Position numbers and translations under genes: made by a program. Source: a virus (lineage: Duplodnaviria > Heunggongvirae > Uroviricota > Caudoviricetes). From it: a DNA stretch of 17,526 nucleotides. Below the pieces are notes generated by a model. That model saw only the letters and a list, made by a program, of their open reading frames with translations, searched no databases and was not told the origin of the DNA. Where the stretch lies: IMG/VR virus record IMGVR_UViG_2645727821_000005, positions 1 to 17,526 of that record; one strand, given 5' to 3'. Shown here in pieces: positions 1 through 17,526 of this stretch. Positions within the stretch are counted from its first letter, which is position 1. Each line of letters opens with the position of its first letter.

Positions 1-237
1 GTAACCATAAGGCGGCGTCCACAGAAAGGCCTTCCAGCCCCCGTGCTCAGCCAGAAACGACTCCAGCGCCGTGGCCTCCTCACGGGAGACAGACAGCGTC
101 ACGCTGTACGTTTTCAGGTCAGCGTTCAGCCCGGCAGGCGCACGCTGGGAATAGCCATCACCAAAGCGCACCTCCCTGACGGAAGGAGCCGATGTCACAT
201 CCATCCCGGGTTTCACTTTCCAGCGGAAGGTTTTCAT
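1..237 (-). CDS. M: Tail protein gpM (lambda M-like), partial: 3' end runs off the window edge
   Basis: Minus-strand ATG at 237..235 (MKTFRWKVKPGMDV...) reads in frame to position 1 with no stop. The ATG overlaps the TGA stop of H (ATGA coupling). Position directly downstream of H matches lambda gene order. Confidence 0.8.
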   Translation of the reverse strand, partial: MKTFRWKVKPGMDVTSAPSVREVRFGDGYSQRAPAGLNADLKTYSVTLSVSREEATALESFLAEHGGWKAFLWTPPYGY

Positions 238-2816
238 CGTCCACCTCCGTAGAACAGACCACCATCGCGCATCTGTGCCTGGATTTCATCACGGGCACCC
301 TTGCGGGCCATGTCATACACCGCCTTCATCATCTGTGGACCTGGCAGACCATTCGTACCGTCGTTCTGAATCACCACGTTGTTGTTCTGCTCAAACCTGA
401 TACCCTCTGAACGCCGCATTTGCGCCGGACTTCCGGTGCCACCGACATAACCGCCAGTGGCATAGCCGCGCATCAGCCGGTAGAGATTCCCCACGCCAAT
501 CCGGCTGGTTGCCTCCTTCGTGAAGACAAATTCACCACGGTGAACAATCCCCGCTGGCTCATATTTGCCGCCGGTTCCAGTAAATCCTCCGGTTGCAAAA
601 TGAAATTTCTCCGCAGCGGCCTGAATGGCTGTACCGGTTGAGACGGATGCGCCGCCACCAACAACTCCGCCAATGACGCTGCCGATACTCCCGACAATCC
701 CCACCATTGCCTGCTTAAGCAGAATTTCTGTCATCATGGACAGCACGGAACGGGTGAAGCTGCGCCAGTTCTGCTCACTGCCGGTCAGCATCGCCGCCAT
801 ATTCTGCGCAATACCATCAAAGGTCTGCGTGGCTGCACTTTTAACCTGCGACATACTGTCCGTGGCGCTCTCTTCCCACTCACTCCAGCCGGACTTCAGG
901 CCTGCCATCCAGCTCCCGCGAAGCTGGTCTTCAGCCGCCCAGGTCTTTTTCTGCTCTGACATGACGTTATTCAGCGCCAGCGGATTATCGCCATACTCCT
1001 CCTTCAGGCGCTGTTCCGTGGCTTCCCTCGCTGCCTGCCGGTCAGTCAGCCCCCGGCTTTTCGCATCAATGGCGGCCCGTTTTGCCCGTTGCTGCTGTGC
1101 AAATTTATCCGCCTGCTTCGCCAGTTCGTTCAGCCGTTTCTGGTGTTCAACCTTATCGCCAAGTTCAGCCAGCTGACGTTTGTACTCCAGCGTCTCTTTT
1201 TCATGAGCAAGAAGAGATTTTTCCTCGATACTTAGCGATTTCTTCTGTCCGTCCAGAACGTCAGCAGACAACTTCTCATGCAACACGGCATACTGGCTTT
1301 CGGCTGTCCACAAATCCCGGCGCTGCTGGCTGATTTTTTCATTCGCTCCGCTATGCTGCTCAAGCATTTTTAGTTCAGCTTGTAACGCAAGAAGAGCTGC
1401 ATGTGCTCGATCTTCCTGACGCTCTCCCGCAGACACCTTCACGCCGGACTGTTTCGGCTTTTTCAGCGTCGCTTCATAATCCTTTTTCGCCGCCGCCATC
1501 AGCGTGTTGTAATCCGCCTGCAGAATTTTCCCGTCTTTCAGTGCCTTATTCAGTTCTTCCTGACGGGCGGTATATTTCTCCAGCGGCGTCTGCAGCCGTT
1601 CGTAAGCCTTCTGCGCCTCTTCGGTATATTTCAGCCGTGACGCTTCGGTATCGCTCTGCTGCTGCGCATTTTTGTCCTGTTGACGCTGTTGATCTACCCT
1701 CTTTTGGGCTGCATCCCGCTCCAGGCGTTTTTTTTCACGATCATCCCAGTAACGCGCCCGCGCTTCATCGTTAACGAAATAATCATCCTTGCGCAGATTC
1801 CAGATGTCGTCTGCTTTCTTAAACGCAGCCTCTGCCTTAATCAGCATCTCCTGCGCGGTATCAGGACGACCAATATCCAGCACCTCATCCCACATGGATT
1901 TGAATGCCCGTGCTGTCCTGTCTGCCCAGGTCTCCAGCGTGCCCATGTTCTCTTTCAGGCGGCGGGTCTGGTCATCAAACCCTTTCGTTGCGGCCTCGTT
2001 CGCCGCCTGCAATGCCCCGGCTTCATCGCCGGAACGCTGCAACTGAGCAACATACGCAATCTGCTCCGCCGTCACGTTATGGAACTGGCGCGCCATCGCC
2101 GTCAGCCCCGACGTCGGGTCAGTGGTCAGCTTCCCGAAGGCTTCAGCGACCTTGTCCACCTCCACGCCGGATGCAGAGGAGAAACGCGCCACACTCTGGC
2201 TGATGGACGCAATCTGAGCCTCACCGCTTACCCCCGCCTTAACCAGTGCACTGAGTGACTCGCTGGTCTGGTTAAACGTCAGCCCTGCCGCCTGCCCGGC
2301 TCTGGACAGGACCAGCATACGATCTGCCGTCAGACCCGACTGATTGCCGGAAAGGACCAGCGTTTTGTTGAAATCGGACAGGGTTGAGTTGCCCTGATAC
2401 CAGGCATACGCCAGCGCACCGGTCGCCACCGCCAGCGAGGTTGCCCCGACCATCGGCAGGGTGATCGCACCGGCAAGCCCCCTGAACATGGGGATCATCC
2501 CGCCGAAGGAGTCCTTCACCTGACCACCCTGTTGCAGCAGGATCAGCCACGGACTTTGCCCGCCTGCAAGCTGCGTGGCCACGTCGGTGAACTGCGCAGG
2601 CAGCATACGCATGGCAGCTTTATACTGCCCGACGGAAATCCCCGCTTTCTGTGCAGCCAGTGCCTGTCGGCTCAGCGACTGTTCAACGACTGCCGCTGTT
2701 TTTTTCGCATCACTTTCCGTACCGGAAAAATGACGCCTGACTCTGGCCATCTGCTCGTCAAATCTGGCCGCATCCAGACTCAAATCAACGACCAGATCGC
2801 CTACCGGTTCAGCCAT
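234..2816 (-). CDS. H: Tail tape measure protein gpH
   Basis: 860-aa ORF, ATG at 2816..2814. N-terminus MAEPVGDLVVDLSLDAARFDEQMARV and C-terminal glycine-rich region match lambda gpH as I recall it; long coiled-coil-like central region. Start overlaps the end of the T reading frame. Confidence 0.93.
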   Translation of the reverse strand: MAEPVGDLVVDLSLDAARFDEQMARVRRHFSGTESDAKKTAAVVEQSLSRQALAAQKAGISVGQYKAAMRMLPAQFTDVATQLAGGQSPWLILLQQGGQVKDSFGGMIPMFRGLAGAITLPMVGATSLAVATGALAYAWYQGNSTLSDFNKTLVLSGNQSGLTADRMLVLSRAGQAAGLTFNQTSESLSALVKAGVSGEAQIASISQSVARFSSASGVEVDKVAEAFGKLTTDPTSGLTAMARQFHNVTAEQIAYVAQLQRSGDEAGALQAANEAATKGFDDQTRRLKENMGTLETWADRTARAFKSMWDEVLDIGRPDTAQEMLIKAEAAFKKADDIWNLRKDDYFVNDEARARYWDDREKKRLERDAAQKRVDQQRQQDKNAQQQSDTEASRLKYTEEAQKAYERLQTPLEKYTARQEELNKALKDGKILQADYNTLMAAAKKDYEATLKKPKQSGVKVSAGERQEDRAHAALLALQAELKMLEQHSGANEKISQQRRDLWTAESQYAVLHEKLSADVLDGQKKSLSIEEKSLLAHEKETLEYKRQLAELGDKVEHQKRLNELAKQADKFAQQQRAKRAAIDAKSRGLTDRQAAREATEQRLKEEYGDNPLALNNVMSEQKKTWAAEDQLRGSWMAGLKSGWSEWEESATDSMSQVKSAATQTFDGIAQNMAAMLTGSEQNWRSFTRSVLSMMTEILLKQAMVGIVGSIGSVIGGVVGGGASVSTGTAIQAAAEKFHFATGGFTGTGGKYEPAGIVHRGEFVFTKEATSRIGVGNLYRLMRGYATGGYVGGTGSPAQMRRSEGIRFEQNNNVVIQNDGTNGLPGPQMMKAVYDMARKGARDEIQAQMRDGGLFYGGGR

Positions 2817-3647
2817 ACCGGACTCCTCCTGCGATACCTTCTGATACTGTCATCAGCATTACGTCATCCTCCGTCATGTCCGCCACATCCGGGGAAGCGG
2901 GGATAACTTCATTCCCGTCCGGGCCAAAGCGGACGCCTCCGGCAAGCCCTGCCGCTTTCTGCATCAGCACATCATCTTCAGGCTCTTCGTCAGCCTCGCG
3001 CCGGTTCAGCAGACTGAAATCCAGCGGATGCATATCCGGATCGCTGAAAAACAGGCTGAGCACGGTGTACGTCAGCCCGGAAAAGTGCATATCCAGCAGA
3101 ACATCATGAAAATAATGGGTACTGTAAAAGCGGTGCCAGTCGGCATACTCCGTGGATGACATCCCGGCGAGCATGGCGCGCCAGTCGGGTCGCCCCATCT
3201 CGCGCGCCAGTTTCAGGGCAAAACTCAGCTCACCGTCGAACACTTTCCCGCAGAAACAGGCTCTGCAGGCCCGGCGTCCTCTGCCTGGTCAGGGGCATCA
3301 TTCACCACAAACTCATACATTCCGGACAGCCGGTACACCACGTTTTCAGCATGAGAAATTGCCGCTGTGGGCCAGGTGGTAAGCACTTCCTGCTCAATCT
3401 GTTTAACGGCTTCATTCATGGACGGCTGCTTTGTCTTCTGCGGATGGTTATGCCACAGGGACATCGCCACCAGAAACGCGCCGGTTCTGATGGCGTCTTC
3501 CACAGTAAACTTCCGGTTGCTGTCTGACTCCGCCTGTTCTGCCTGCCGTTTCATCAGGGCGAGATGCTCAATACGCTGCAGGGCTGACAGTTCAGAAAGC
3601 GTGACGGTCACGCCGTTATATTCAAATGATTCGGTTTTCAGGAACAT
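2809..3647 (-). CDS. T: Tail assembly chaperone gpGT, made by a -1 programmed frameshift from G into the T frame
   Basis: The T frame (2809..3243) is open in the -1 frame relative to G and has no independent start with an RBS. Slippery heptamer G GGA AAG lies at minus-strand 3249..3243. T frame ends 8 nt inside the start of H. Confidence 0.85.
3225..3647 (-). CDS. G: Tail assembly chaperone gpG
   Basis: 140-aa ORF (MFLKTESFEYNGVTVTLSEL...), ATG at 3647..3645 preceded by GGAGAG. Same length as lambda G. Ends SAGKCSTVS immediately after the GGGAAAG slippery heptamer. Confidence 0.92.
   Translation of the reverse strand: MFLKTESFEYNGVTVTLSELSALQRIEHLALMKRQAEQAESDSNRKFTVEDAIRTGAFLVAMSLWHNHPQKTKQPSMNEAVKQIEQEVLTTWPTAAISHAENVVYRLSGMYEFVVNDAPDQAEDAGPAEPVSAGKCSTVS
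3243..3249 (-). other. Programmed -1 ribosomal frameshift slippery site GGGAAAG (G to G-T)
   Basis: Plus strand 3243..3249 is ctttccc, reverse complement GGGAAAG, lying across the last codons of G (…A-G-K-C-S-T-V-S-stop). The -1 frame continues into the T ORF. Confidence 0.85.
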
Positions 3648-3662
3648 CGCTGACTCTCCGGA

Positions 3663-4403
3663 TTAGCTGTCGGTGACGTTGATTTCTGCAACCGCAGCAA
3701 ACTCACCATTACCGGATACAACCGGAATGTTGACCCTGCCTGCAGCAACGCCCTTCACGGTGATGGTCATACCACTGACCGACACGGTGGCTTTTGTTTT
3801 ATCCGAAGACACCGCACGGAAGCTCTTGTCGGTTGCGCCTTCCGGCTGGAATGCCACGGTCAGCGTGGTGCTCTGCCCTTTCACCACCGAGGTGCTGGCA
3901 GGCGTCACGGTCATGCCGGTTGCCGCTGTTACCGTGCTGCGATCTTCTGCCATCGACGGACGTCCCACATTGGTGACTTTCACCGTGCGGGTGATCACTT
4001 CCTTCGCCGTCACCGCCTTACCGATACTGCTGACCCAGCCACGGAACACATCGACCGTGCCGTTCGGGAAGCGAATTTTATAGGCACGGGTATCACCTTC
4101 ATTAAACCACGCCAGCAGCGCCTGCTGCCCCTGCTCTCCGGGCATCCACGCCAGCGTGAAACTGGTATCTCCGGCAGATTTCTGCCCCTGCCCGGTCGCA
4201 GTCCAGTCCGCATCTTCATCATCGAGATAGCTGTCGTCATAGGACTCAGCGGTCAGTTCGCCGGGTGTCAGGTCTTTAACTTTTGCCAGACGCGACCAGT
4301 CAACGTCTGAAAGCGGGTTTGCATAAGGGTCGCCGCTCCCGTTATAAACCCACAGTGTGGTCCCGGCCCCTTTCACCGGTGCCAGAGGATTTGGTGTTGG
4401 CAT
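3663..4403 (-). CDS. V: Major tail tube protein gpV
   Basis: ATG at 4403..4401 preceded by GAGGA gives 246 aa ([20 protein letters not shown]...), the lambda V length. The ORF-track start at 4433 is an upstream in-frame extension that overlaps U. C-terminal Ig-like region present. Confidence 0.9.
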
Positions 4404-4410
4404 ATCGTCC

Positions 4411-4806
4411 TCACATTTCATAGGTAATGACATAAGTCAGATCGGCTGAACTCCACAGGCCCGCATCATCGTCGCGCCGGTAGTCATAGCCGCTGGCCAC
4501 CATACTGGTGATCAAATCTGACAGTGCCGGGATATCGCTCATCACCGGATAAATCCGGGACTCCATCCACGCATCCAGCTCTGAATCCGGCACCTGAGCA
4601 GGCAGGAAAACTTCGATATGCAGCTCCGCCTGCCAGGTATCGCTGTCCAGCTCTTCGCCCGTGTATTCAGCGCCAGTGAGATAAACGGCAATTGCCGGAA
4701 AATCCGCCTCATCAAAAACAGCGGGGCGACCATCAAAAAGCGTCGCCCCGGTGTCATGCTTCTCCAGTGCATCCAGTACGGCTGCACGGAGTTCAGTATG
4801 TTTCAT
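4411..4806 (-). CDS. U: Tail tube terminator protein gpU
   Basis: 131 aa ([21 protein letters not shown]...), same length as lambda U. ATG overlaps the Z stop (ATGA). Confidence 0.92.
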
Positions 4807-5378
4807 CGCTTTATCACAATCCTCAGTTGTTGTTTCAGCGCATAGCTCAGTTCTTTTGGCAGACGTTCTCGCCGGATACGGTTAACGTTCTCATCAAAAG
4901 CCTGTTTCAGTGGGACCGCCATCGGAATTTTCACCACCTGAATGGGAAGACGATTACGCTTTTTCCTTCCCTTATCGTCAGTGCCCTTCGCATACCGTGC
5001 TTCTGGCAGACGTTGCATAACATGCCAGCGTCCATTATTTAATCGCTGGATGAATGCCCGCTGATAACGATGCTGACCGGCTTTGAGTATGCTGTTCGGG
5101 CGATGACCAAGCATCCTGATCCCCAGCTTAATAGCAGGGAGATCACCTCGGTTAACGATAATTTTTGCATTCGGATTTCTGACCGTAGCTCGTTTCAGTC
5201 TGGATCGCTCTTTAACCAGTTTTCTCGGCACCCGGGTTTCACGGGCGACCTGAGACGAAGACTGATTAATCGCCGTTGCGGCCACGCGGTTAATGGCCAT
5301 TGCTGACGCACCAGGCACCGCCGTTTTGCTGATACGGCTGAGGTTTTCAACGGCCTGCTCAAGACCTTTTATGGCCAT
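4803..5378 (-). CDS. Z: Tail completion protein gpZ
   Basis: 191 aa (MAIKGLEQAVENLSRISKTAV...), ATG at 5378..5376. Position and length match lambda Z (192 aa as I recall). Confidence 0.88.
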   Translation of the reverse strand: MAIKGLEQAVENLSRISKTAVPGASAMAINRVAATAINQSSSQVARETRVPRKLVKERSRLKRATVRNPNAKIIVNRGDLPAIKLGIRMLGHRPNSILKAGQHRYQRAFIQRLNNGRWHVMQRLPEARYAKGTDDKGRKKRNRLPIQVVKIPMAVPLKQAFDENVNRIRRERLPKELSYALKQQLRIVIKR

Positions 5379-5389
5379 ACACCCCCCTT

Positions 5390-5743
5390 TCAGCGACGAC
5401 GGTTAACGGCAGGCGGCACACCACGCCCAAGCCAGAGATGACAACTTCCGCCATCATCCGGCGAAATCCGGTCTATCCAGAAGTTTTCCTCACCGATGGT
5501 CAGCGTGTCGCCGCGCCGCAGCTGCCGCACATCATCAGTCCGGACAAACAGGGACGGGCTGGAGCCTTCAACGCGCACGCCCTGTCCGGCATAGCTGATA
5601 TTTTCAGGGTCATCAAAAACACCACGTATCACCGCACCGGACTGCTCACCGGATGTCATGGTGGCTGACGTTCCCATGTACCCGCGTATCGTTTCATCGG
5701 CGCGGGCAATGGCAGCATCGAACAGGTTATCGAAATCAGCCAC
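5390..5743 (-). CDS. FII: Head-tail joining protein gpFII
   Basis: 117 aa (MADFDNLFDAAIARADETIRGYMG...). GTG start at 5743..5741 preceded by GGGAGG with 4-nt spacer. Confidence 0.9.
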   Translation of the reverse strand: MADFDNLFDAAIARADETIRGYMGTSATMTSGEQSGAVIRGVFDDPENISYAGQGVRVEGSSPSLFVRTDDVRQLRRGDTLTIGEENFWIDRISPDDGGSCHLWLGRGVPPAVNRRR

Positions 5744-5754
5744 AGCGCCTCCCG

Positions 5755-6153
5755 TTATTGCATTCTGGCCAGGCCACGTTCTGTCATTTCGGCTGCCACA
5801 CCGGCAGAGACACGGAACGCCGTTCCCGGCAGCACAAATGCCACAGGTTCATCCCGCGTGGCGTGAAGTGCATCGGTATGCAGCGTCACCAGTGCCACTA
5901 CCGTGACCAGTTCAGCCGTATCATGAATCACGGTATCCGGCTGCGCTGATACCACCTCATTTTCATGCCCGGTCAGCGCATTTTCCGGGCTGACAGATGT
6001 GTCCTGACCGGCAGCGTCATCCGTGTCATCAAGCTCCTCTTCCAGCTCTGCCACACGGAGTGCCAGTTCTTCTTTCGTCCCCGTCAGGCTGACATCACGG
6101 TTCAGTTGCTCACCCAGCACCTGAAGACGGGCAATCAGTTCATCTTTCGTCAT
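5755..6153 (-). CDS. FI: DNA packaging / head assembly protein gpFI
   Basis: ATG at 6153..6151 preceded by GGAGGAG gives 132 aa (MTKDELIARLQVLGEQLNRDV...), the lambda FI length. The ORF-track start at 6192 is an upstream extension. Confidence 0.9.
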   Translation of the reverse strand: MTKDELIARLQVLGEQLNRDVSLTGTKEELALRVAELEEELDDTDDAAGQDTSVSPENALTGHENEVVSAQPDTVIHDTAELVTVVALVTLHTDALHATRDEPVAFVLPGTAFRVSAGVAAEMTERGLARMQ

Positions 6154-6194
6154 GGACTCCTCCACAGAGAGAAAATGGCCCCGAAGGGCCATGA

Positions 6195-7220
6195 TTACGC
6201 CAGTTGTACAGACACGAATTCATCAGGGTCAGCCAGCAGCATCAGCGGTGCTGACTGAATCATAGTGAACTCACGCGCCGGATCGCCGGTGGTCACCCAG
6301 TTTTTCGGGTAACGGGCAGAGGCGTTAATGCCTTCGCGCTGTGCGTCCGCATCCTGAATGCAGCCATAGGTGCGCAGACCGCGTGCCTGAGTGTTCCCCA
6401 GCACCATCGTGTTGTCCGGCAGGAAGTTCTTTTTGACGCCGTTTTCCACGTACTGTCCGGAATAAACGACGATGGCCACATCGCCATACATTCCCTTATA
6501 AGACACCGCTTTGCCCAGGTCTTTCACCGCTGTCTCCAGCTCGGAATGAGAGCCGCGACGGGTATCCAGCTTATCCTTGACGGCCTTGAAGGAACGGAAC
6601 AGCGCCCAGCCTTTCGGATCAAACACGATGATATTCACCACACCGCTGGCGTTCAGCGCGTAGGCTTCGATATCGTCGGTCGGGTCATACGTGGACTTGT
6701 CACGCTGGCTCCACTGCGTGCCGCCGGACTGCGTGATGTTATTCGCCGCACTGCGGCCCATATCCACTTCAACCGGATCGAAGGCTTCACCGGTCATGGT
6801 GTATTTGCCCTTAAGCACGGCAGAAACGGCCTGCATCTCTTCGACCTGAGCAATGGCCAGCTCTTCGTCACGCATGTTCTGCATGATGATGCGACGGCGG
6901 CGGTAAGCCGGGTCCGCCAGATTCTGTGGATCTTCATCCGGCAGGCGACGCAGGGTCATCTGCGGATTCACCTCATGCTTCGGCTTGACATATCCCGGCG
7001 TAAATTCAGAGGTGGAGCCGCCACGGGAACGGATAACCTCACCGGAAACAATCGGCGAAACGTACAGCGCCATGTTTACCAGTCCCGGAATTTGTGAGAG
7101 ATAGACTTTCTCCGTGGTGAAGGGATAGCTCTCACGGAAAAAGAGACGCAGAAACAGCGGATCAAACTTAAATTTCTTCTCATTTGCCGCCAGCAGCTGG
7201 GCAGTTGTGTACATCGACAT
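6195..7220 (-). CDS. E: Major capsid protein gpE
   Basis: ATG at 7220..7218 gives 341 aa (MSMYTTAQLLAANEKKFKFDPLFLRLFF...), the lambda E length. The ORF-track start at 7247 is an upstream extension into the D-E intergenic hairpin. Confidence 0.93.
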   Translation of the reverse strand: MSMYTTAQLLAANEKKFKFDPLFLRLFFRESYPFTTEKVYLSQIPGLVNMALYVSPIVSGEVIRSRGGSTSEFTPGYVKPKHEVNPQMTLRRLPDEDPQNLADPAYRRRRIIMQNMRDEELAIAQVEEMQAVSAVLKGKYTMTGEAFDPVEVDMGRSAANNITQSGGTQWSQRDKSTYDPTDDIEAYALNASGVVNIIVFDPKGWALFRSFKAVKDKLDTRRGSHSELETAVKDLGKAVSYKGMYGDVAIVVYSGQYVENGVKKNFLPDNTMVLGNTQARGLRTYGCIQDADAQREGINASARYPKNWVTTGDPAREFTMIQSAPLMLLADPDEFVSVQLA

Positions 7221-7230
7221 AAAAAAATTC

Positions 7231-7257
7231 CGTAAAAAAAGCCGCACAGGCGGCCTT
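7231..7257 (-). terminator. Putative intrinsic terminator/attenuator hairpin between D and E
   Basis: Minus strand reads GCCGCCTGTGCGGC (5-bp GC-rich stem, 4-nt loop) followed by TTTTTTT, between the D stop and the E start. Confidence 0.5.
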
Positions 7258-7275
7258 TAGTGATGAAGGGTAAAG

Positions 7276-7608
7276 TTAAACGATGCTGATTGCCGTTCCG
7301 GCAAACGCGGTCCGTTTTTTCGTCTCGTCGCTGGCAGCATCCGGCCAGAGCACATCCTCATAACGGAACGTGCCGGACTTGTAGAACGTCAGCGTGGTGC
7401 TGGTCTGGTCAGCATCAACCGCAAGAATGCCAACGGCAGCACCGTCGGTGGTGCCATCCCACGCAACCAGCTTACGGGTGGAGGTGTCCGGCATCAGCGG
7501 GGTCATTGCAGGCGTTTTCGCACTCAATCCGCCGGGCGCGGTTGCGGTATGAGCCGGGTCACTGTTGCCCAGCGGCTGGTAATGGGTAAAGGTTTCTTTG
7601 CTCGTCAT
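7276..7608 (-). CDS. D: Head decoration protein gpD
   Basis: ATG at 7608..7606 preceded by AAGGGA gives 110 aa ([27 protein letters not shown]...), the lambda D length. Confidence 0.92.
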
Positions 7609-7617
7609 AAACATCCC

Positions 7618-8223
7618 TTACACTGGTGTGTTCAGCAAATCGTTAACGGCATCAGATGCCGGGTTACCTGCAGCCAGCGGTGCCGGTGCACCCTGCATCA
7701 GACGATCCAGCGCAGTATCACTGCGCGCCTGTGCACTCTGTGGTGCTGCGGCCAGAATGCGGCGGGCCGTTTCCACGGTCATACCGGGGGTTTCAGCCAG
7801 CACGCGGGCCTGTTCTTCGCGTCCGTGAGCCTCCTCACAGTTGAGGATCCCCATAATGCGGCTGTTTTCTGCCGCAACTGCTGCGGTGATCTGCGCGTTC
7901 ACGTCCGGCTGCGCCGCGCTGGCGTTTTCGCCCTCCGTCTCTGGCATCACGTCAGTAACGTCAGCCTGCGAAGCAGTGGCTGAAACAGTTGTTGATTGGG
8001 TCTCTTTGGTCATTCGCCCTCCTGAGAGACGGGATTTACGTGCATCCAGTGCATCACGCATGACGGTGATCGCATCGGTGCTGTTAACAAGTTCATCAGC
8101 CAGTCCGGCATCAATGGCCTCCTGACCGCTGTACACTGCAGCCTCGGTATCCAGCACAGCCTGCACGGACAGGCCGGTATATGCCGACACCTTCTGCGCA
8201 AACATCCGGCGGGTTGCATCCAT
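7618..8223 (-). CDS. Nu3: Scaffolding protein gpNu3, nested in frame in the 3' third of C
   Basis: Internal in-frame ATG at 8223..8221 (MDATRRMFAQKVSAYTGL...) gives 201 aa sharing the C stop, as in lambda. Called from the lambda precedent and the presence of the ATG, not from an independent signal. Confidence 0.6.
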   Translation of the reverse strand: MDATRRMFAQKVSAYTGLSVQAVLDTEAAVYSGQEAIDAGLADELVNSTDAITVMRDALDARKSRLSGGRMTKETQSTTVSATASQADVTDVMPETEGENASAAQPDVNAQITAAVAAENSRIMGILNCEEAHGREEQARVLAETPGMTVETARRILAAAPQSAQARSDTALDRLMQGAPAPLAAGNPASDAVNDLLNTPV

Positions 8224-8917
8224 CCGGGACTGCAGTGTCTCCCGGACGTCATCCGGAAGATGGCTGTAGGGGTTGCCATCCACCTTATGGCTGCCGCTGT
8301 AAATCAGCGTGATTTCCATGCCCTGTTTCTCCAGCGCAGCGCCGTAATTACTGTGAGCCATCATGACGCCGATGGAGCCTGTCCGGGCGGTCTGTGTGAC
8401 CAGACGCCGGGAGGCGGCACTGGCAAGCAGCTGACCTGCACTGCAGTTCATGTCGTTGGCCAGCGCCCATACCGGTTTTATGTCACGCACACGGGCGATG
8501 ATGTCAGCGCAGTCAAATGCCCCCGCCACCATCCCGCCGGGCGTGTCCATATCGAGCAGAATGCCGTCCACCATCGGATCGCTGGCAGCCTGTTGCAGAC
8601 GGGCGATAATGCCGTTGTAACCGGTCATCCCCGAATACGGCTGCAGCGCCCGCGTCCGGCTGACCAGCGTGCCGGACACCGGCAGCACGGCGATGCCGTT
8701 CATGACCTGATAACTGCGGGCCTGTCGTGGTCCGTCATCATCAACGGATAACGCCAGCGTCGCGGGTGCCTCTCCGGCAGTCAGGCTGTCACCGGACACC
8801 GCATCCGTCAGGCGGCTGATCCCAAGCTGGCCTGCAAGCGCACAAAAGAAAACCCGCGCATAGGCGGGTTCAAGCATCAGCGGCTCATTAAAGGCCATGC
8901 TGGCAATATGCGGGAGA

Positions 8918-8937
<20 letters not shown>
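7618..8937 (-). CDS. C: Head maturation protease / scaffold gpC (ClpP/S49-like)
   Basis: GTG at 8937..8935 preceded by GGAGGAGAAGA gives 439 aa (VTAELRNLPHIASMAFNEPLML...), the lambda C length. Start overlaps the 3' end of B by 20 nt as in lambda. The ORF-track start at 9072 is an upstream extension. Confidence 0.9.
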
Positions 8938-12618
<3,681 letters not shown>

Positions 12619-12644
<26 letters not shown>

Positions 12645-13164
12645 TCAGCAACCCCGGTATCAGTTCATCCAGCGCGGCTGCTTTGTTCATGGCTTTGATG
12701 ATATCCCGTTTCAGGAAATCAACATGTCGGTTTTCCAGTTCCGGAAAACGCCGCTGCACCGACAGGGGGATCCCGTCGAGAATACTGGCAATTTCACCTG
12801 CGATCCGCGACAGCACGAAAGTACAGAATGCGGTTTCCACCACTTCAGCGGAGTCTCTGGCATTTTTCAGCTCCTGTGCGTCGGCCTGCGCACGCGTAAG
12901 TCGATGGCGTTCGTACTCAATAGTCCCTGGCTGGAGATCTGTCTCGCTGGCCTGCCGCAGTTCTTCAACTTCCCGGCGCAGCTTTTCGTTCTCAATTTCA
13001 GCATCCCTTTCGGCATACCATTTTATGACGGCGGCAGAGTCATAAAGCACCTCATTACCCTTGCCACCGCCTCGCAGAACGGGCATTCCCTGTTCCTGCC
13101 AGTTCTGAATGGTACGGATACTCACACCGAAAATGTCAGCCAGCTGCTTTTTGTTGACTTCCAT
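12619..13164 (-). CDS. Nu1: Terminase small subunit gpNu1
   Basis: 181 aa (MEVNKKQLADIFGVSIRTIQNWQEQGMPVLRGGGKGNEVLYD...), ATG at 13164..13162. N-terminal winged-HTH region. Sits about 190 bp downstream of cosN as in lambda. Confidence 0.95.
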
Positions 13165-13400
13165 TGTTCATTCCACGGCCAAAAACAGAGAAAGGAAACG
13201 ACAGAGGCCCAAAAGCTCGTTTTCAGCACCTGTCGTTTCCTTTCTTTTCAGGGGGTATTTTAAATAAAAACATTAAGTTACAACGAAGAAGAACGGAAAT
13301 GCCTTAAACCGGAAAATTTTCATAAATAGCGAAAACCCGCGAGGTCGCCGCCCCGTAGCCTGCCGGATCGCCGGAAAGGACCCGCAGGCGTTCTGGTTTA
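13165..13400 (-). other. cos region (cosB between cosN and Nu1, cosN, and the cosQ side)
   Basis: Reverse complement of 13261..13353 reads GGGCGGCGACCTCGCGGGTTTTCGCTATTTATGAAAATTTTCCGGTTTAAGG..., the lambda left end as I recall it. Plus strand 13354..13385 (cgtagcctgccggatcgccggaaaggacccgc) resembles the lambda right end. Confidence 0.85.
13342..13353. other. cosN 12-nt cohesive-end sequence (GGGCGGCGACCT on the minus strand)
   Basis: Plus strand 13342..13353 is aggtcgccgccc, the exact reverse complement of the lambda 12-nt cohesive end. Confidence 0.85.
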
Positions 13401-13435
13401 TTCTCAATGAATTCAATGTCTGACAGACCTGCGTC

Positions 13436-13453
13436 GTGCGACCACGGTCGCAC
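13436..13453. repeat. 18-bp palindrome GTGCGACCACGGTCGCAC, copy 1 of 3
   Basis: 8-bp inverted arms GTGCGACC / GGTCGCAC around a 2-bp centre. Identical 18-mer recurs at 15122..15139 and 15342..15359. Confidence 0.9.
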
Positions 13454-13477
13454 AGCAATGAATCAACATCCTGCATG

Positions 13478-13546
13478 CTCGTGCAGAGGAGTTCCCCGTC
13501 AGGCTACGGTCATGGTTAATGCGGGAATACAGCGACGATACAGCGC
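13478..13546. repeat. Direct repeat, copy 1 (~69 bp; partner at 15263..15331)
   Basis: ctcgtgcagaggagttccccgtcaggctacggtcatggttaatgcgggaatacagcgacgatacagcgc aligns to 15263..15331 in the same orientation with 5 mismatches (about 93% identity) at an offset of 1785 bp. Confidence 0.9.
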
Positions 13547-13662
13547 ATGATGTGTCAGGCTTGAATACATTTATCCGTTAAAAGGGATATCAGTTAAGTT
13601 ATCCCGTGTAGGGTATAAGCCATTATCAAAGCCACTCAGTAGCGAATGGCTTTTGTAATGGA

Positions 13663-14112
13663 CTATTTAATTAGTGATGCTGCGTATTCGATTAGATATA
13701 ACTTAGGTGCCAACCAGATTTTTAACCATGTCATATTGGTTACTACAGCAATAATAAAACTTACCCACAGAACAAAAACTGCTGCTAATGGTAAGATAAG
13801 AAAACTAATCTCACCGTTACTTTCCCAAATCATAGTCGGTTTGTATTTAGGCTTCCCTTTTTCCCATGACCATCCTTCATTATCGAACTTACCAATTTCA
13901 ACTTTTTGGTACTGTTTCTTCATAAACCAAATAACCAGCGGGATTGTTGAAATGGCTATTAATGTTTTAATCAGGCTATCAACCATATTCCATACCAGCA
14001 ACTGATGAACAACATCCGGAATCTGAGCCTGACTGAATGCAATGGCGGAATCAATTCCATCGCTGGCCTTCTTCAATAAATCAACAAGAATTTTATTTGC
14101 TTCTTCTTGCAT
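13663..14112 (-). CDS. Hypothetical small membrane protein (149 aa; at least two predicted transmembrane segments), AT-rich accessory gene
   Basis: ATG at 14112..14110 with a weak AGGA-type RBS (MQEEANKILVDLLKKASDGIDSAIAF...). Hydrophobic stretches LIKTLIAISTIPLVIWFM and ISFLILPLAAVFVLWVSFIIAVV. Lysine-rich, low GC compared with the flanking phage genes. No family recognised. The ORF-track start at 14157 is an alternative. Confidence 0.7.
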   Translation of the reverse strand: MQEEANKILVDLLKKASDGIDSAIAFSQAQIPDVVHQLLVWNMVDSLIKTLIAISTIPLVIWFMKKQYQKVEIGKFDNEGWSWEKGKPKYKPTMIWESNGEISFLILPLAAVFVLWVSFIIAVVTNMTWLKIWLAPKLYLIEYAASLIK

Positions 14113-14237
14113 GTTTATATCCTGTAAGTTGTAAGCCTGTTCGAGAAAAATAAACAACTACGAGAGACAGAAAAAAAATATCTCAGGCTCTCTTTCTATA
14201 AGCTTTTAGTTGAGGATGTTCTGCAAAACAAAACTGG

Positions 14238-15098
14238 TTAGTTATGTAACTGCTTCCGGAATACAACAGCCGACGAGCTACAACGTAAAATTCGTTTGAT
14301 TGTGGCAGTTGAGGAAACATACTTGCATTTCTCAACATCATCAATAATGACCACATCCGGTACAGGAATGACGCGGGTATGCAATGTTTTTGCACTAATA
14401 ACATCACAGCCATTCAGTGGTCGAATATCTGCATCTTCAGGCACTACCAGAAGCACACGTTTTTCCGGTGCAGAAAAGCCAGCAGCAAGAGTGCGTGACA
14501 ATAAAGTCATTCCGCTGCGTGGCTTCATACAAATTTCAGAAATATGATTCTTTTCGTCCAAATGATGCTGGACATCATTTTTATCATCACTCAACAACTC
14601 TGCTGTTAATACAATCCCTGCTGTCTCAGATTTCCAGGAAATGCTGATATCCTGATCATCTGCATCAACATCATATTTCATCGAGTAAGGACTAAAGCTA
14701 CGTCCAACGAACGCATCATTTACCAGTACACGCCCACCCTGTCTGACCTGAAAGTCAACGCGCCCTGAAAGCTGATTTGCTGTTACAAGCAATGCCTTTT
14801 TTCTTTTTGTTTTATTGCTCATTGCCACCAACTGTTCAGCCATCTCTCTTGTCACACTACCAGAAACTCTTTCTTGAATTTTCACAGAAAATTTTCTGGA
14901 TGTAGTAGCATCGACATTAAAAAATCTGGATGTCATCAGGCAGTTATTAACAATTGGCATCAGCTCACTTACGATTGTAAAAAATTCCCGGTAAAGCTCA
15001 TTTTGCTTTTCAACACACAGCTTTCCACAATCGTCCAGCTTACGCTCAAGAGCACTTAACCTTTCCATTATTGAATTAATTTTTTGCAACTCTTTCAT
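14238..15098 (-). CDS. Hypothetical protein (286 aa), AT-rich accessory gene with a coiled-coil-like N-terminus; function unknown
   Basis: ATG at 15098..15096 preceded by a strong AGGAGG RBS at 5-6 nt spacing (MKELQKINSIMERLSALERKLDDCGKL...). The 373-aa ORF in the track extends upstream through the repeat and palindrome region and is probably not translated. Low GC. No family recognised. Confidence 0.75.
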   Translation of the reverse strand: MKELQKINSIMERLSALERKLDDCGKLCVEKQNELYREFFTIVSELMPIVNNCLMTSRFFNVDATTSRKFSVKIQERVSGSVTREMAEQLVAMSNKTKRKKALLVTANQLSGRVDFQVRQGGRVLVNDAFVGRSFSPYSMKYDVDADDQDISISWKSETAGIVLTAELLSDDKNDVQHHLDEKNHISEICMKPRSGMTLLSRTLAAGFSAPEKRVLLVVPEDADIRPLNGCDVISAKTLHTRVIPVPDVVIIDDVEKCKYVSSTATIKRILRCSSSAVVFRKQLHN

Positions 15099-15120
15099 CA
15101 AAACCTCCTGACAAAAATAC

Positions 15121-15140
15121 CGTGCGACCACGGTCGCACG
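15121..15140. repeat. 18-bp palindrome, copy 2 of 3 (9-bp arms here), just upstream of the 286-aa gene RBS
   Basis: cGTGCGACCACGGTCGCACg. On the minus strand the hairpin is followed by GGTATTTTTGT and then AGGAGG and the ATG, so it is terminator- or attenuator-like. Confidence 0.85.
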
Positions 15141-15262
15141 CTCCTGAATACATGCCCTGTTTCTTCCACCCTCGCACAGGACTGGCGAGCATGAGGGACA
15201 AACCCGCGAATCATTAGCGCGGTAAAAACCCGGTGTGCATCGTTTTTGATTATTTCCGCACA

Positions 15263-15331
15263 CTCGCGCAGAGGAGTTCCCCGTCGGGCTACGGTCATGG
15301 TTAATGCGGAAATACGGCGACGATGCAGCGC
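15263..15331. repeat. Direct repeat, copy 2 (~69 bp; partner at 13478..13546)
   Basis: ctcgcgcagaggagttccccgtcgggctacggtcatggttaatgcggaaatacggcgacgatgcagcgc; see copy 1. Confidence 0.9.
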
Positions 15332-15340
15332 GGTATTTAA

Positions 15341-15360
15341 TGTGCGACCACGGTCGCACA
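15341..15360. repeat. 18-bp palindrome, copy 3 of 3 (9-bp arms), 20 nt downstream of the DUF4406-like gene stop
   Basis: tGTGCGACCACGGTCGCACa. On the minus strand it follows the TAA of the upstream gene and is followed by the A/U-rich ATTAAATAC. Confidence 0.85.
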
Positions 15361-15378
15361 CGAGAAACAAAGAGATTT

Positions 15379-15690
15379 TTATGCTACAGAGGAACAAGCT
15401 GGCGGGTAATTCAGCGTAGTGAATACCGGCATCTCCATCTTGTATGCGTAATGATACTCAGCAGTTGCTCCAGCAGACGCTTTCCAGCCAGGAAGCATCA
15501 AAATAGCATCCGCACAACGAAGCATTGCAAAGCAAATATCCATGTATTCACGTTGTGTCAGACCATTAGGTAAAGTGGCTGGATTCAAGACAGAGTGACC
15601 ATGTCGTGACAAACGATCTGCCTCTTTATTAAAGGCGTCACGATTAAAGTTCTCATATCCCGTCATTGGCCCGGCAATATAAATTTTCAT
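15379..15690 (-). CDS. Small accessory protein, DUF4406-like / nucleoside 2-deoxyribosyltransferase-like (103 aa)
   Basis: ATG at 15690..15688 (MKIYIAGPMTGYENFNRDAFNKEADRLSRHGHSVLNPATLP...). The N-terminal MKIYIAGPMTG...NP motif is what I recall as characteristic of DUF4406. Sits directly downstream of Rz. GC is visibly lower than the head genes. Family call is from memory. Confidence 0.75.
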   Translation of the reverse strand: MKIYIAGPMTGYENFNRDAFNKEADRLSRHGHSVLNPATLPNGLTQREYMDICFAMLRCADAILMLPGWKASAGATAEYHYAYKMEMPVFTTLNYPPACSSVA

Positions 15691-15731
15691 TCACTATCCA
15701 ACAAATTGAGTTCGTTTTTGATACAGAGGGA

Positions 15732-16199
15732 TTAATTCAGGCATTGCGTATTGATGTATTCCTGAAGCGTTCTCAGTGCTGTTTGGTCGCGGATAATTCC
15801 GTCCCGGATACCGAGAACGTTTCGTCCAGCAACTGAAGAGAGTTCGACGGTGGCATCATTGCCCATGCCGGAGGCGCTGGAGGTTTTGGCTGAGGCTGGC
15901 ACAAGGCATTTTCCTTTGACGAGCACCCGACCACCATTATCAAGCTTACGCCGAAGAGCATCATTTTCAGCTTTCGCATTGGCTAACTCCTTCGTGTATT
16001 TAGCATCGAGTGCATCAGCAGCACGCTGGCGCTGCTGCATGTCAGCGATGGTGGCGGTCGCCTGCTTCAGCTCACTGACTTTTTTATCACGCTGTTCTTT
16101 GTAGGCGATGGCGTTATCACGGTAATGATTAACAGCCCACGACAGGCAGACGATGATGCAGATAACCAGAGCGGAGATAATCGCGGTTAACCGACTCAT
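15732..16199 (-). CDS. Rz: Spanin inner-membrane subunit Rz (i-spanin)
   Basis: ATG at 16199..16197 ([40 protein letters not shown]...) gives an N-terminal transmembrane helix, then a coiled-coil periplasmic domain; N-terminus is like lambda Rz. The ORF-track start at 16235 is a GTG extension. Confidence 0.85.
15773..15979 (-). CDS. Rz1: Spanin outer-membrane lipoprotein subunit Rz1 (o-spanin), embedded in the +1 frame of Rz
   Basis: 68 aa ([44 protein letters not shown]...). ATG at 15979..15977, lipobox-like VVGC and a proline-rich segment, entirely inside Rz in a different frame as in lambda Rz/Rz1. Confidence 0.8.
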
Positions 16200-16287
16200 G
16201 ACATCAACACCCCAACGGCTAGAAACCACGGCCACGCATCGTTGCCATTAAATGCGAGCAACGCTGCCATGAAAAAGCAAATCATGC

Positions 16288-16785
16288 TCATTGCTGCCCC
16301 CACAAACAGACTTCTCGCTCAATATCACGACGGGTCATCAGCCCTTTCCATTGCTTACCGCCAGCGTATGTCCAGCGACGCAACTGGTCACATGCGCCCT
16401 TGATATCGCCCTGGTTTATTTTGCGAAGAAGCGTCGATGTTCTGAAATTACCAGCACCCACGTTGTAAACGAATGAGTAAAGAGCGCCGCGCGTTGTTTC
16501 CGGTATATCGACTTTGATGTACGGGTTAATTTGTCTGGCGACAGTGGCAAGGTCTTTATTCAGGAGGGCTTTGCATTCTGCTTCGGTATACGTTTTACCG
16601 AGCATGATGTCTTTTCCGGTGTGTCCGTGACATACAGTCCATACGCCAACGATATCTTTGTATGGTATGTAGCTGACACCTTCCAGGCCATCGTCACCAC
16701 CTGGGCCAGTGATTAACACTGATGCTATAGCAATTGCTCCGCCACCAATAGCAGCAGCAACGGCTTTTCGTAATGATGGAGGCAT
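16288..16785 (-). CDS. R: SAR endolysin (T4-lysozyme-family muramidase with N-terminal signal-anchor-release domain), phage 21 R-like
   Basis: 165 aa ([59 protein letters not shown]...). Gly/Ala-rich weakly hydrophobic N-terminus typical of SAR endolysins, followed by a lysozyme catalytic region. ATG overlaps the S stop (TAATG). Confidence 0.9.
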
Positions 16786-17000
16786 TATTCACCTCTCGCA
16801 GCCTTGCGCTTATCTTCTTTAATCTTGAAATAAAGGTTTGTCAGGTACGTCAGCAGGCCAAATACCAGGCTACCCAGCACACCTATTGCTGCCCACTGTG
16901 AGGGCGTGACTTTATCGAGCAACTGTAAAAACCAATACCCGGCACTACCTGCTGAGGTGCCATAGGCGACACCCGTTGTTAACTTATCCATGGATTTCAT
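16785..17000 (-). CDS. S: Pinholin (phage 21 S-like holin/antiholin with dual-start motif)
   Basis: 71 aa ([71 protein letters not shown]). Two transmembrane segments. MKSM dual start at Met1 and Met4. RBS GAGGTGG. Immediately upstream of the SAR endolysin. Confidence 0.9.
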
Positions 17001-17031
17001 AACCCCACCTCGCAGATGCGGGTGCTGTGTA

Positions 17032-17060
17032 ATGGAAATAAAAAGGCCACCTGCGTGGCC
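17032..17060 (-). terminator. Putative intrinsic terminator between the methyltransferase gene and S
   Basis: Minus strand reads GGCCACGCAGGTGGCC (6-bp GC stem, 4-nt loop) followed by TTTTTATTT, in the 66-bp gap between the methyltransferase stop (17067) and the S start (17000). Confidence 0.6.
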
Positions 17061-17066
17061 ACCAGA

Positions 17067-17526
17067 TTATTTCCCCACCAGCTCGTTTATCTCTTTCACT
17101 GTCTGGTTAAACCGCCCTGACTCAAGATCAACACCTAAGGCCCGACGCCCCAGCGCCATTGCTGCTTTTATTGTGGAACCGGATCCCATAAAAAAATCAG
17201 CAACCAGATCACCTGGTCGACTACTGGCATTGATTATTTGCCTGAGCATATCCGCCGGTTTCTCACACGGATGTTTCCCCGGGTAGAACTGAACGGGTTT
17301 ATGCATCCAGACATCGGTATAAGGCACGGAGACTGATACGGAGAAATAGCGCCGGAGAGATTTAAACTCATCCAGCAATTCAGAATATTTGCGATTCAGT
17401 GAATCATAAGATGCCACCAGCTGGTGGTGTGGTTGTTCCAGTTGTTGTTCCTGAAACTTCTCTGCCGCTATACGGGAAAACAGTGCCTGTAACTTCCGAT
17501 AGTCAGCCTCATTCGGCAACTGCCAC
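17067..17526 (-). CDS. DNA methyltransferase (N6-adenine/N4-cytosine family, beta-class motif order), 3' portion only; 5' end lies outside the window
   Basis: C-terminal ...HKPVQFYPGKHPCEKPADMLRQIINASSRPGDLVADFFMGSGSTIKAAMALGRRALGVDLE... contains the FxGSGST AdoMet-binding motif I near the C-terminus. The DPPY-type catalytic motif expected upstream is not in the window, so the Met at 17519 is probably not the true start. Confidence 0.8.
   Translation of the reverse strand, partial: WQLPNEADYRKLQALFSRIAAEKFQEQQLEQPHHQLVASYDSLNRKYSELLDEFKSLRRYFSVSVSVPYTDVWMHKPVQFYPGKHPCEKPADMLRQIINASSRPGDLVADFFMGSGSTIKAAMALGRRALGVDLESGRFNQTVKEINELVGK

Follow-up and report, generated by a model that had tools for sequence, protein, structure and literature searches.

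The DNA analysed here (below, the window) is the whole stretch of 17,526 nucleotides (nt) formed by positions 1 to 17,526 of the IMG/VR record IMGVR_UViG_2645727821_000005, a virus of the class Caudoviricetes, and its interval 13436-15360 carries two genes, for a soluble protein of 286 amino acids (aa) and an inner-membrane protein of 149 aa, along with direct repeats and palindromes. The late genes of the window are lambda-like and are located on the minus strand; with decreasing coordinate, they are a methylase fragment, the holin, lysozyme and Rz genes, a DUF4406 gene, the interval, cosN, Nu1, the terminase gene A, and the head and tail genes, which places the interval between the lysis genes and cos. 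Both genes share the direction of S, R, Rz, Nu1 and A, and the GC content across 13600-15200 is 0.36-0.44, compared to 0.53-0.60 in the flanking late genes. A first-pass annotation, made from the sequence without database searches, had described this region as an AT-rich two-gene interval between the lysis genes and cos, and both the composition and the coordinates of the open reading frames (ORFs), cosN and Nu1 (Table 1) agree with that. Its descriptions of the larger gene as preceded by an AGGAGG ribosome-binding site, of the smaller as having at least two transmembrane segments and of both as late-oriented are likewise correct, as is its remark that the Rz-cos interval of lambda carries bor (according to the lambda record). 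The same annotation had interpreted the pair as a candidate defence system similar to lambda RexA/RexB, brought in as one inserted unit. According to our analysis, with a probability of roughly 0.7, the interval is instead the known hypervariable slot of an N15-like phage-plasmid, being a mosaic of separately circulating phage accessory genes, and the locus is unlikely to be a two-gene defence system of the Rex kind.

The 18-bp palindrome GTGCGACCACGGTCGCAC is present in three copies in the window, at 13436, 15122 and 15342, while 0.01 copies are expected by chance. The comparison with N15 was suggested by the similarity of the palindrome to the sopC repeat of the F plasmid. The N15 SopB centromere sites (PMC7205306, Table 4) are IR1 GTGCGACCACGGTCGCAC, IR2 GTGCGACCTCGGTCGCAC, IR3 GTGCGACCATGGTCGCAC and IR4 GTGCGACCACGGTCGCAC; the window palindrome is letter-for-letter identical to IR1 and IR4 and fits the consensus of IR1-IR4, GTGCGACC-NN-GGTCGCAC. 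Exactly four copies at no more than one mismatch are present in N15 (NC_001901), at positions matching those in the relatives of the window, that is, after Q, before the methylase gene and in the slot from DUF4406 to cos. Moreover, over 119 stretches from viral contigs of IMG/VR contain the palindrome. About 50 unrelated contexts flank it, and several copies per contig are common, a pattern indicative of a protein-binding site; the palindrome also lies 24 nt ahead of the start of the 286-aa gene in every locus carrying that gene. Judging by their sequence, we identify the three palindromes as N15-type SopB (ParB) centromere sites, and not as marks of one inserted unit. As in N15, these are dispersed single copies at matching positions, though three of them are found within 1.9 kb in the window, while N15 has one (IR4) in the corresponding slot. 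In the relatives of the window, additional palindromes directly follow the Q gene and directly precede the methylase gene, like IR2 and IR3 of N15.

The gene order of N15 (methylase, holin, lysozyme, gp55, gp56, DUF4406 gene 57, dcm gene 58, IR4, gp59, cos) agrees with that of the window, and the DUF4406 protein is 83% identical to N15 gp57, whose gene likewise comes next after the lysis genes. Escherichia phage PhiR46_1, 98.6% identical across the cassette, is the closest relative of the interval, and its record has annotated telL and telR, ParA, a SopB-like ParB (74% identical to N15 SopB) and five palindrome copies. The identity of the centromere sites, the gene order, and the telomeres, ParA and ParB of PhiR46_1 together indicate that the window comes from an N15-like linear phage-plasmid; the window itself stops short of the par genes, and at the level of the replicon the evidence is that from PhiR46_1. 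Consistent with this origin, plasmids of roughly 36-75 kb hold 14 of the 35 Escherichia coli matches to the 286-aa gene, and YDC107_1, with a truncated copy of this gene, is classified as Ravinvirus.

The direct repeat, reported by the first-pass annotation as two copies of about 69 bp located 1785 bp apart, is indeed present, as are the three palindromes that go with it, the repeat being 74 nt long and 91% identical between 13473-13546 and 15258-15331 (start-to-start distance 1785). The role assigned to it, that of bracketing one inserted unit, did not hold. The 74 nt constitute the 5' part of a non-coding module of about 190 nt, which is present in full upstream of the 286-aa gene and as a truncated and diverged copy, without the 3' strand of its long hairpin, at the other end of the interval, where it is adjoined by a conserved spacer (13547-13685). 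A single copy of the same module is found in lambda (NC_001416), between bor and lambdap78 at about 46.85-47.04 kb, and it occurs in at least 119 IMG/VR contigs. In all, 375 phage records matched the interval, most of them in the repeat region alone.

Comparison of related loci shows how the slot is filled. The relative L147, 96.7-96.9% identical to both window flanks, has the module, palindrome and cos, and no cassette; this empty site is precise, the matches to the left and right flanks overlapping exactly in one palindrome. In L114 the spacer, a partial module, the palindrome and cos are present, and neither gene; in L014 the module and palindrome are followed by a 286-aa-type gene alone and then by cos; in PhiR46_1 the second module copy is 172 nt long and the third palindrome is absent. 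Among the 119 lambdoid loci, the cargo of the slot comprises bor (34), p78/YbcV (33), DUF3950 (54), Rha-like (19) and TonB_C-like (10) genes, and others, with the 286-aa gene found in three loci and the membrane gene in two; the N15 slot holds dcm and gp59. As the joints fall in shared non-coding sequence (the module and the palindrome), they argue for a mosaic built by homologous recombination and not for scars of one insertion. The earlier view of the cargo as compositionally foreign and variably present among relatives thus is in agreement with both the GC content and the empty site in L147.

This slot, the presence or absence of its cargo in close relatives and its atypical composition are shared with the lambdoid morons, such as lambda bor, DLP12 borD/ybcV, and N15 genes 58 and 59. 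Lambda bor differs in having its own promoter and lying on the opposite strand, while the window genes are late-oriented with no predicted promoter. Two other modes of acquisition were considered and rejected. Insertion with target duplication at the palindrome, suggested by the empty site of L147, is at odds with the palindrome being a SopB site and with the right-hand junction being present in L114 without the genes. The same junction, the pre-existing SopB site at the flank and the lack of a recombinase in the interval also argue against an integron- or transposon-like cassette.

Both proteins fall into existing PHROG families whose function is unknown (phrog_2571 for the 286-aa and phrog_3054 for the 149-aa protein), and hence the term "undescribed" used earlier does not apply at the family level. 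The 149-aa protein has hydrophobic segments at about 43-65 and 99-130, and its AlphaFold2 (AF2) model, with the predicted local distance difference test (pLDDT) score of 62.2, contains helices 33-68 and 106-125; two, possibly three, membrane helices and an amphipathic C-terminal helix are therefore predicted. The alignment of phrog_3054 shows a conserved N-terminal helix, two transmembrane helices, the loop EGYSW..G.PKY.PT.IW and the near-invariant C-terminal helix TWLKIWLAPKLYLIEYAA, 37 columns being invariant at 56-90% identity among members from different genera and phage types. The ratio of nonsynonymous to synonymous substitution rates (dN/dS) of the gene in comparisons with its relatives is 0.07-0.38. 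The protein has no match in Pfam (including PF14163 SieB and any holin or spanin family), NCBIfam or PADLOC, and the sequence search of PDB with its family yielded nothing significant.

The distribution of this family is broad. At E<=1e-3 it comprises 488 clusters from Escherichia, Salmonella, Cronobacter, Citrobacter, Klebsiella and Pantoea, and it is present in 177 phage records, including Vibrio phages and virulent N4-like and phi92-like coliphages. In P22-like and lambda-like prophages the gene is flanked by cIII on one side and by N, ral or sieB on the other; in a Klebsiella prophage its place is after a KilA-N gene, with the lysis genes and terminase on either side; in a Pantoea P2-like phage it lies between the endolysin gene and Rz/Rz1, the start of Rz overlapping its stop codon; in an N4-like Shigella phage and phi92-like coliphages it is found in early regions; and in a Vibrio phage it is a lone gene on the opposite strand among tail genes. 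No conserved partner was identified in the virulent phages, where its neighbours encode a collagen/YadA-anchor protein, an AAA ATPase and small unknown proteins. We conclude that the 149-aa gene represents a widespread stand-alone accessory membrane-protein family, and, being well conserved across lambdoid, P22-like, P2-like, N4-like, phi92-like and Vibrio phages, this family may deserve the attention of specialists. As a separate observation, gp84 of Shigella phage B2 (L022:2973-3962), encoded after the phrog_3054 homologue, combines collagen repeats with a YadA-type outer-membrane anchor, and such an envelope protein is unusual for a virulent N4-like phage.

The 286-aa protein is far more restricted. 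Its relatives form 15 clusters among 5.8 billion sequences, all from E. coli (compared to the 488 clusters of the membrane protein), and an exhaustive HMMER scan of 1.84 billion representatives yielded one full-length 50%-identity cluster. No match was found in Pfam, NCBIfam or PADLOC, nothing significant in the PDB sequence search with the family, and nothing at E<=0.001 in the Foldseek comparison of the structure models with BFVD; N15 has no homologue of either this or the 149-aa protein. The AF2 model, based on a 9-sequence alignment (pLDDT 51.8), contains, with low confidence, a helical hairpin (residues 2-58), a six-stranded domain (100-169) and a small alpha/beta domain (199-283). Residues about 100-170 are homologous to abundant 74-aa ORFs of lambdoid prophages in enterohaemorrhagic and enteropathogenic E. 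coli (EHEC, EPEC) and Salmonella, assigned to the same phrog_2571, as detected by a profile built with two weak partial relatives; the start of the 74-aa ORF overlaps the Rz stop by 4 nt (e.g. L032:4001-4225). In another relative, P0145 (181 aa, L028:5001-5546), encoded between the Q and holin genes of a lambdoid prophage, the beta domain is N-terminal and is followed by a coiled coil, in the order reverse to that of the 286-aa protein. From this central-domain homology to Rz-linked ORFs and the domain order of P0145 it follows that the 286-aa protein is a composite restricted to one lineage, with a middle domain related to a small ORF that comes after Rz in many lambdoid prophages.

The dN/dS of the 286-aa gene is 0.26 relative to an 80%-identical variant, and by these substitution ratios both genes are under purifying selection. 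At the same time there exist truncated alleles of 198 aa and 104 aa (in L002, which is YDC107_1, L006 and L007), produced by deletions whose junctions connect nt 585 or nt 353 of the gene with the spacer or module downstream of it; 7 of the 35 E. coli carriers have deletions that removed the membrane gene and the 3' end of the 286-aa gene. An intact 276-aa variant, P0009, is located beside cos with no membrane gene there.

Several minor points concern the same protein. Its reading frame is open for 87 codons further upstream, giving a 373-aa ORF from a GTG at 15359, inside the first palindrome; this start is considered spurious, as the extension is non-coding and contains single-base indels in relatives. 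A degenerate P-loop in the C-terminal domain (KPRSGMT...VLLVVPED...DVVIIDD), an idea prompted by weak PDB matches to P4 ATPase and Wzc (E 0.4-0.9), was dropped, since Pfam and PDB searches with this domain only gave no NTPase family. The 74-aa ORFs have conserved cysteines that are missing from the window protein (region 14590-14800), and about 2.9 kb upstream of P0145 there are no called genes.

A crude consensus scan detected no sigma-70-like site ahead of either gene, the region being poorer in promoter-like sites than shuffled sequence, and no clear terminator after the membrane gene. The palindrome at 15121-15140 followed by GUAUUUUUGU forms a hairpin with a U tract that scores in the same scan as an intrinsic terminator and precedes the ribosome-binding site of the 286-aa gene; IR4 of N15 is likewise annotated as a putative terminator stem-loop. 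Given the lack of a recognisable promoter, the late-operon direction and the U-tract hairpin before the first gene, both genes are probably expressed in lytic growth, as part of the Q-antiterminated late transcript. SopB assembled on the three sites within 1.9 kb may also help to silence both of them in the plasmid prophage. ParB proteins of P1 and F are known to silence nearby genes. Rodionov et al. 1999, which appears in the reference list of PMC5016525, reportedly deals with such silencing.

As for the function, our first and still tentative guess is superinfection exclusion: located in the inner membrane of an infected cell, the 149-aa protein would block, on its own, the entry of a second phage genome; this guess is based on the usual company of the family, namely sieB, ral and the early genes of virulent phages. 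Like the known exclusion proteins (T4 Imm, P22 SieA/SieB, HK97 gp15), it is a small helical membrane protein encoded by a stand-alone accessory gene, and the family is often found beside sieB or ral in the pL operon or in virulent early regions. It differs from them in having no match to the SieB Pfam family or any other one, the likeness being that of position and architecture only. The 286-aa protein would be a cytoplasmic late protein of the Rz-linked phrog_2571 family.

Several observations weigh against this picture of two separate genes with a possible exclusion function. The full-length 286-aa gene is found in 28 complete E. coli genomes, in each of which the membrane gene follows it, and within this E. 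coli lineage the two could be functionally coupled; as the linked copies are 96-99.7% identical, shared descent explains this linkage equally well. P0009, the single uncoupled full-length case, is derived from two contigs only. The promoter scan is a crude consensus match, leaving room for weak or non-sigma-70 promoters and for expression in the prophage. The position of the membrane gene between endolysin and Rz in the Pantoea phage argues for a lysis role over exclusion, and the two structure models have low confidence scores (pLDDT 52 and 62).

A role in lysis is the strongest alternative, albeit an unlikely one. The 149-aa protein would be a lysis accessory (an antiholin, a lysis-timing or a spanin-associated protein), and the 286-aa protein, through its Rz-linked domain, would also belong to the lysis programme; tuning of lysis timing by the membrane protein is accordingly our second choice for its function, suggested by the lysis-cassette position in the Pantoea phage with its overlapping Rz start. 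Consistent with such a role, the window, TUM9803 and the Klebsiella prophage all have the membrane gene immediately downstream of the lysis genes, and the 74-aa relatives of the 286-aa protein overlap the Rz end. However, most members of the membrane family are encoded far from lysis genes, for example in the pL early operon of P22-like and lambda-like phages or the early regions of N4-like and phi92-like phages, and none of the Pfam holin or spanin families is similar to it.

Still less likely is the interpretation of the first-pass annotation, a Rex-like exclusion or abortive-infection pair; in such a pair a soluble sensor would activate a membrane effector. The genes do resemble rexA and rexB of lambda in being adjacent (125 nt apart), co-oriented and carried by a lambda-related temperate phage, as well as in the sizes and architecture of their products (a soluble protein of about 280 aa and a membrane protein of about 145 aa), and both their linkage in the 28 genomes and the purifying selection on the two genes would be expected of such a pair. 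On the other hand, there is no sequence or profile similarity: hhalign gives the probability of 2.3% for the 286-aa protein and RexA and 0.1% for the 149-aa protein and RexB, in line with the absence of similarity already stated by the annotation. The annotation had also proposed a defence-system scan, and in a search of PADLOC-DB v2 at E<=1 neither the two proteins nor the DUF4406 neighbour matched any family. The Rex pair excludes superinfecting phages through depolarisation of the membrane, and RexB, which is ion-channel-like, has four transmembrane helices, while the membrane protein here has two or three. The rex genes are located beside cI in the immunity region, in contrast to the window genes, which lie in the late operon behind a terminator-like hairpin, a position from which expression in lysogens would not be expected. 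Finally, the two window genes circulate independently and are not obligately paired: members of the membrane family overwhelmingly stand alone, next to unrelated genes, and occur in virulent phages too, P0009 is intact without a membrane gene, and one fifth of the E. coli carriers (the seven mentioned above) have lost theirs by deletion.

A further variant, in which phrog_3054 is an undescribed inner-membrane effector (of exclusion or abortive infection) and the 286-aa protein a lineage-specific acquired partner, the two forming a sensor-effector pair in this phage, appears as doubtful as the Rex-like pair. The least probable explanation, that the cassette is a dispensable hitch-hiker, currently without function and retained only through its linkage to cos and the centromere sites, would fit its rarity (28 of the 5426 complete E. 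coli genomes and 2-3 of the 119 lambdoid loci), the several independent truncated alleles and the lack of recognisable domains, but not the dN/dS well below 1 in both genes or the strong conservation of the membrane protein, with its 37 invariant columns, across genera and phage types.

The result is thus mainly corrective, since an apparent new defence pair with insertion scars turns out to be ordinary mosaic cargo, the scars being partition sites and a lambdoid spacer. Of remaining interest are the phrog_3054 membrane family and the module shared with lambda, which is possibly structured. In an RNAalifold analysis of 40-57 non-redundant module copies, the long hairpin is formed by CAUCGUC...UAUUCCCGCAU pairing with UGCGGGAAUA...ACGAUG, and the 3' hairpin by GUCCGGU-loop-ACCGGAC with the conserved loop GGUGGAAGAAAC, while the stems of the middle hairpin are wholly different among phages (CCGCG/CGCGG, CUGUG/CGCAG, UCUCAU/AUGGGA, CACGUU/AACGUG). 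The fold has -36 kcal/mol in the sense orientation versus -15 in the antisense one, with many G-U pairs; 96.4% of the cells are paired, compared to 31-57% after sliding the partners by one to three columns, and four pairs (22 cells) are altered on both sides, that is, show compensatory changes. These data are suggestive of an RNA structure on the late-transcript strand, though the copies are closely related and the structure is derived from the same sequences. The module could be an undescribed late-operon RNA element, or a recombination linker alone.

In the latter respect it is similar to the lambdoid boundary (linker) sequences, which are short conserved non-coding stretches at the junctions where mosaic joints fall; a "boundary sequence" of this kind is annotated in the CUS-3 record. 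The difference is that the module shows base-pair covariation on the late-sense strand and may have an RNA function of its own. This covariation, its presence in lambda itself and the lack of an Rfam family may make the module worth further attention. No Rfam family matches it, and the Rfam scan of 13000-16000 at E<=1 yielded just two eukaryotic matches, both at chance level. The prophage small RNA svsR (PMC12803456) was considered and proved to be unrelated, being located at the 3' end of cI. Gene callers place an ORF of about 58 aa on the opposite strand across the module (e.g. XSB42774 of PhiR46_1).

Table 1. Features of the late region of the window, ordered by decreasing coordinates
Feature	Position	Strand	Remarks
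Holin gene	16785-17000	-	lysis gene
Lysozyme gene	16288-16785	-	lysis gene
Rz	15732-16235	-	lysis gene
DUF4406 gene, 103 aa (nucleoside 2-deoxyribosyltransferase-like)	15379..15690	-	Pfam DUF4406, E=3.7e-34
Palindrome, copy 1	15341..15359	.	exact match to N15 IR1/IR4; predicted N15-type SopB (ParB) site
Full module copy	15154..15335	-	includes the upstream direct repeat 15258-15331; predicted long, middle and 3' hairpins
Palindrome, copy 2, with GUAUUUUUGU	15111..15140 (palindrome 15121-15140)	-	scores as intrinsic terminator; directly upstream of the ribosome-binding site of the 286-aa gene
AGGAGG ribosome-binding site	15104..15109	-	read from sequence; 5 nt before the ATG at 15098
286-aa soluble-protein gene	14238..15098	-	phrog_2571, E=2.7e-162
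149-aa inner-membrane protein gene	13663..14112	-	phrog_3054, E=1.3e-58
Spacer and truncated, diverged second module copy	13473..13685	-	spacer 13547-13685 conserved; module part 13473-13546 is the downstream direct repeat
Palindrome, copy 3	13435..13453	.	82 nt upstream of cosN
cosN, 12-nt cohesive end gggcggcgacct	13342..13353	-	read from sequence; downstream limit of the variable slot
Nu1	12619-13164	-	late gene beyond cosN

The remaining observations concern the surroundings of the slot. The DUF4406 gene lies just beyond the interval, with Rz on one side and the first centromere site on the other; L147 and L114, the lambdoid empty-site relatives, have a gene weakly similar to a Rha-like regulator, and not DUF4406, between Rz and the non-coding module. 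On the other side, the cohesive end at cosN is identical to that of lambda (PMC12315714). The cosB region contains a 26-nt inverted repeat between cosN and the start of Nu1 (13189-13245, 85% complementary, with a 5-nt gap), whose weak match to an Rfam miRNA model is ascribed to chance. Finally, toxin-antitoxin genes (HicA/HicB, RelE/ParE) are located beside the late-region methylase gene in L014 (1238-1876) and L006 (1-66), this methylase-side site being a further variable accessory slot of these phage-plasmids.

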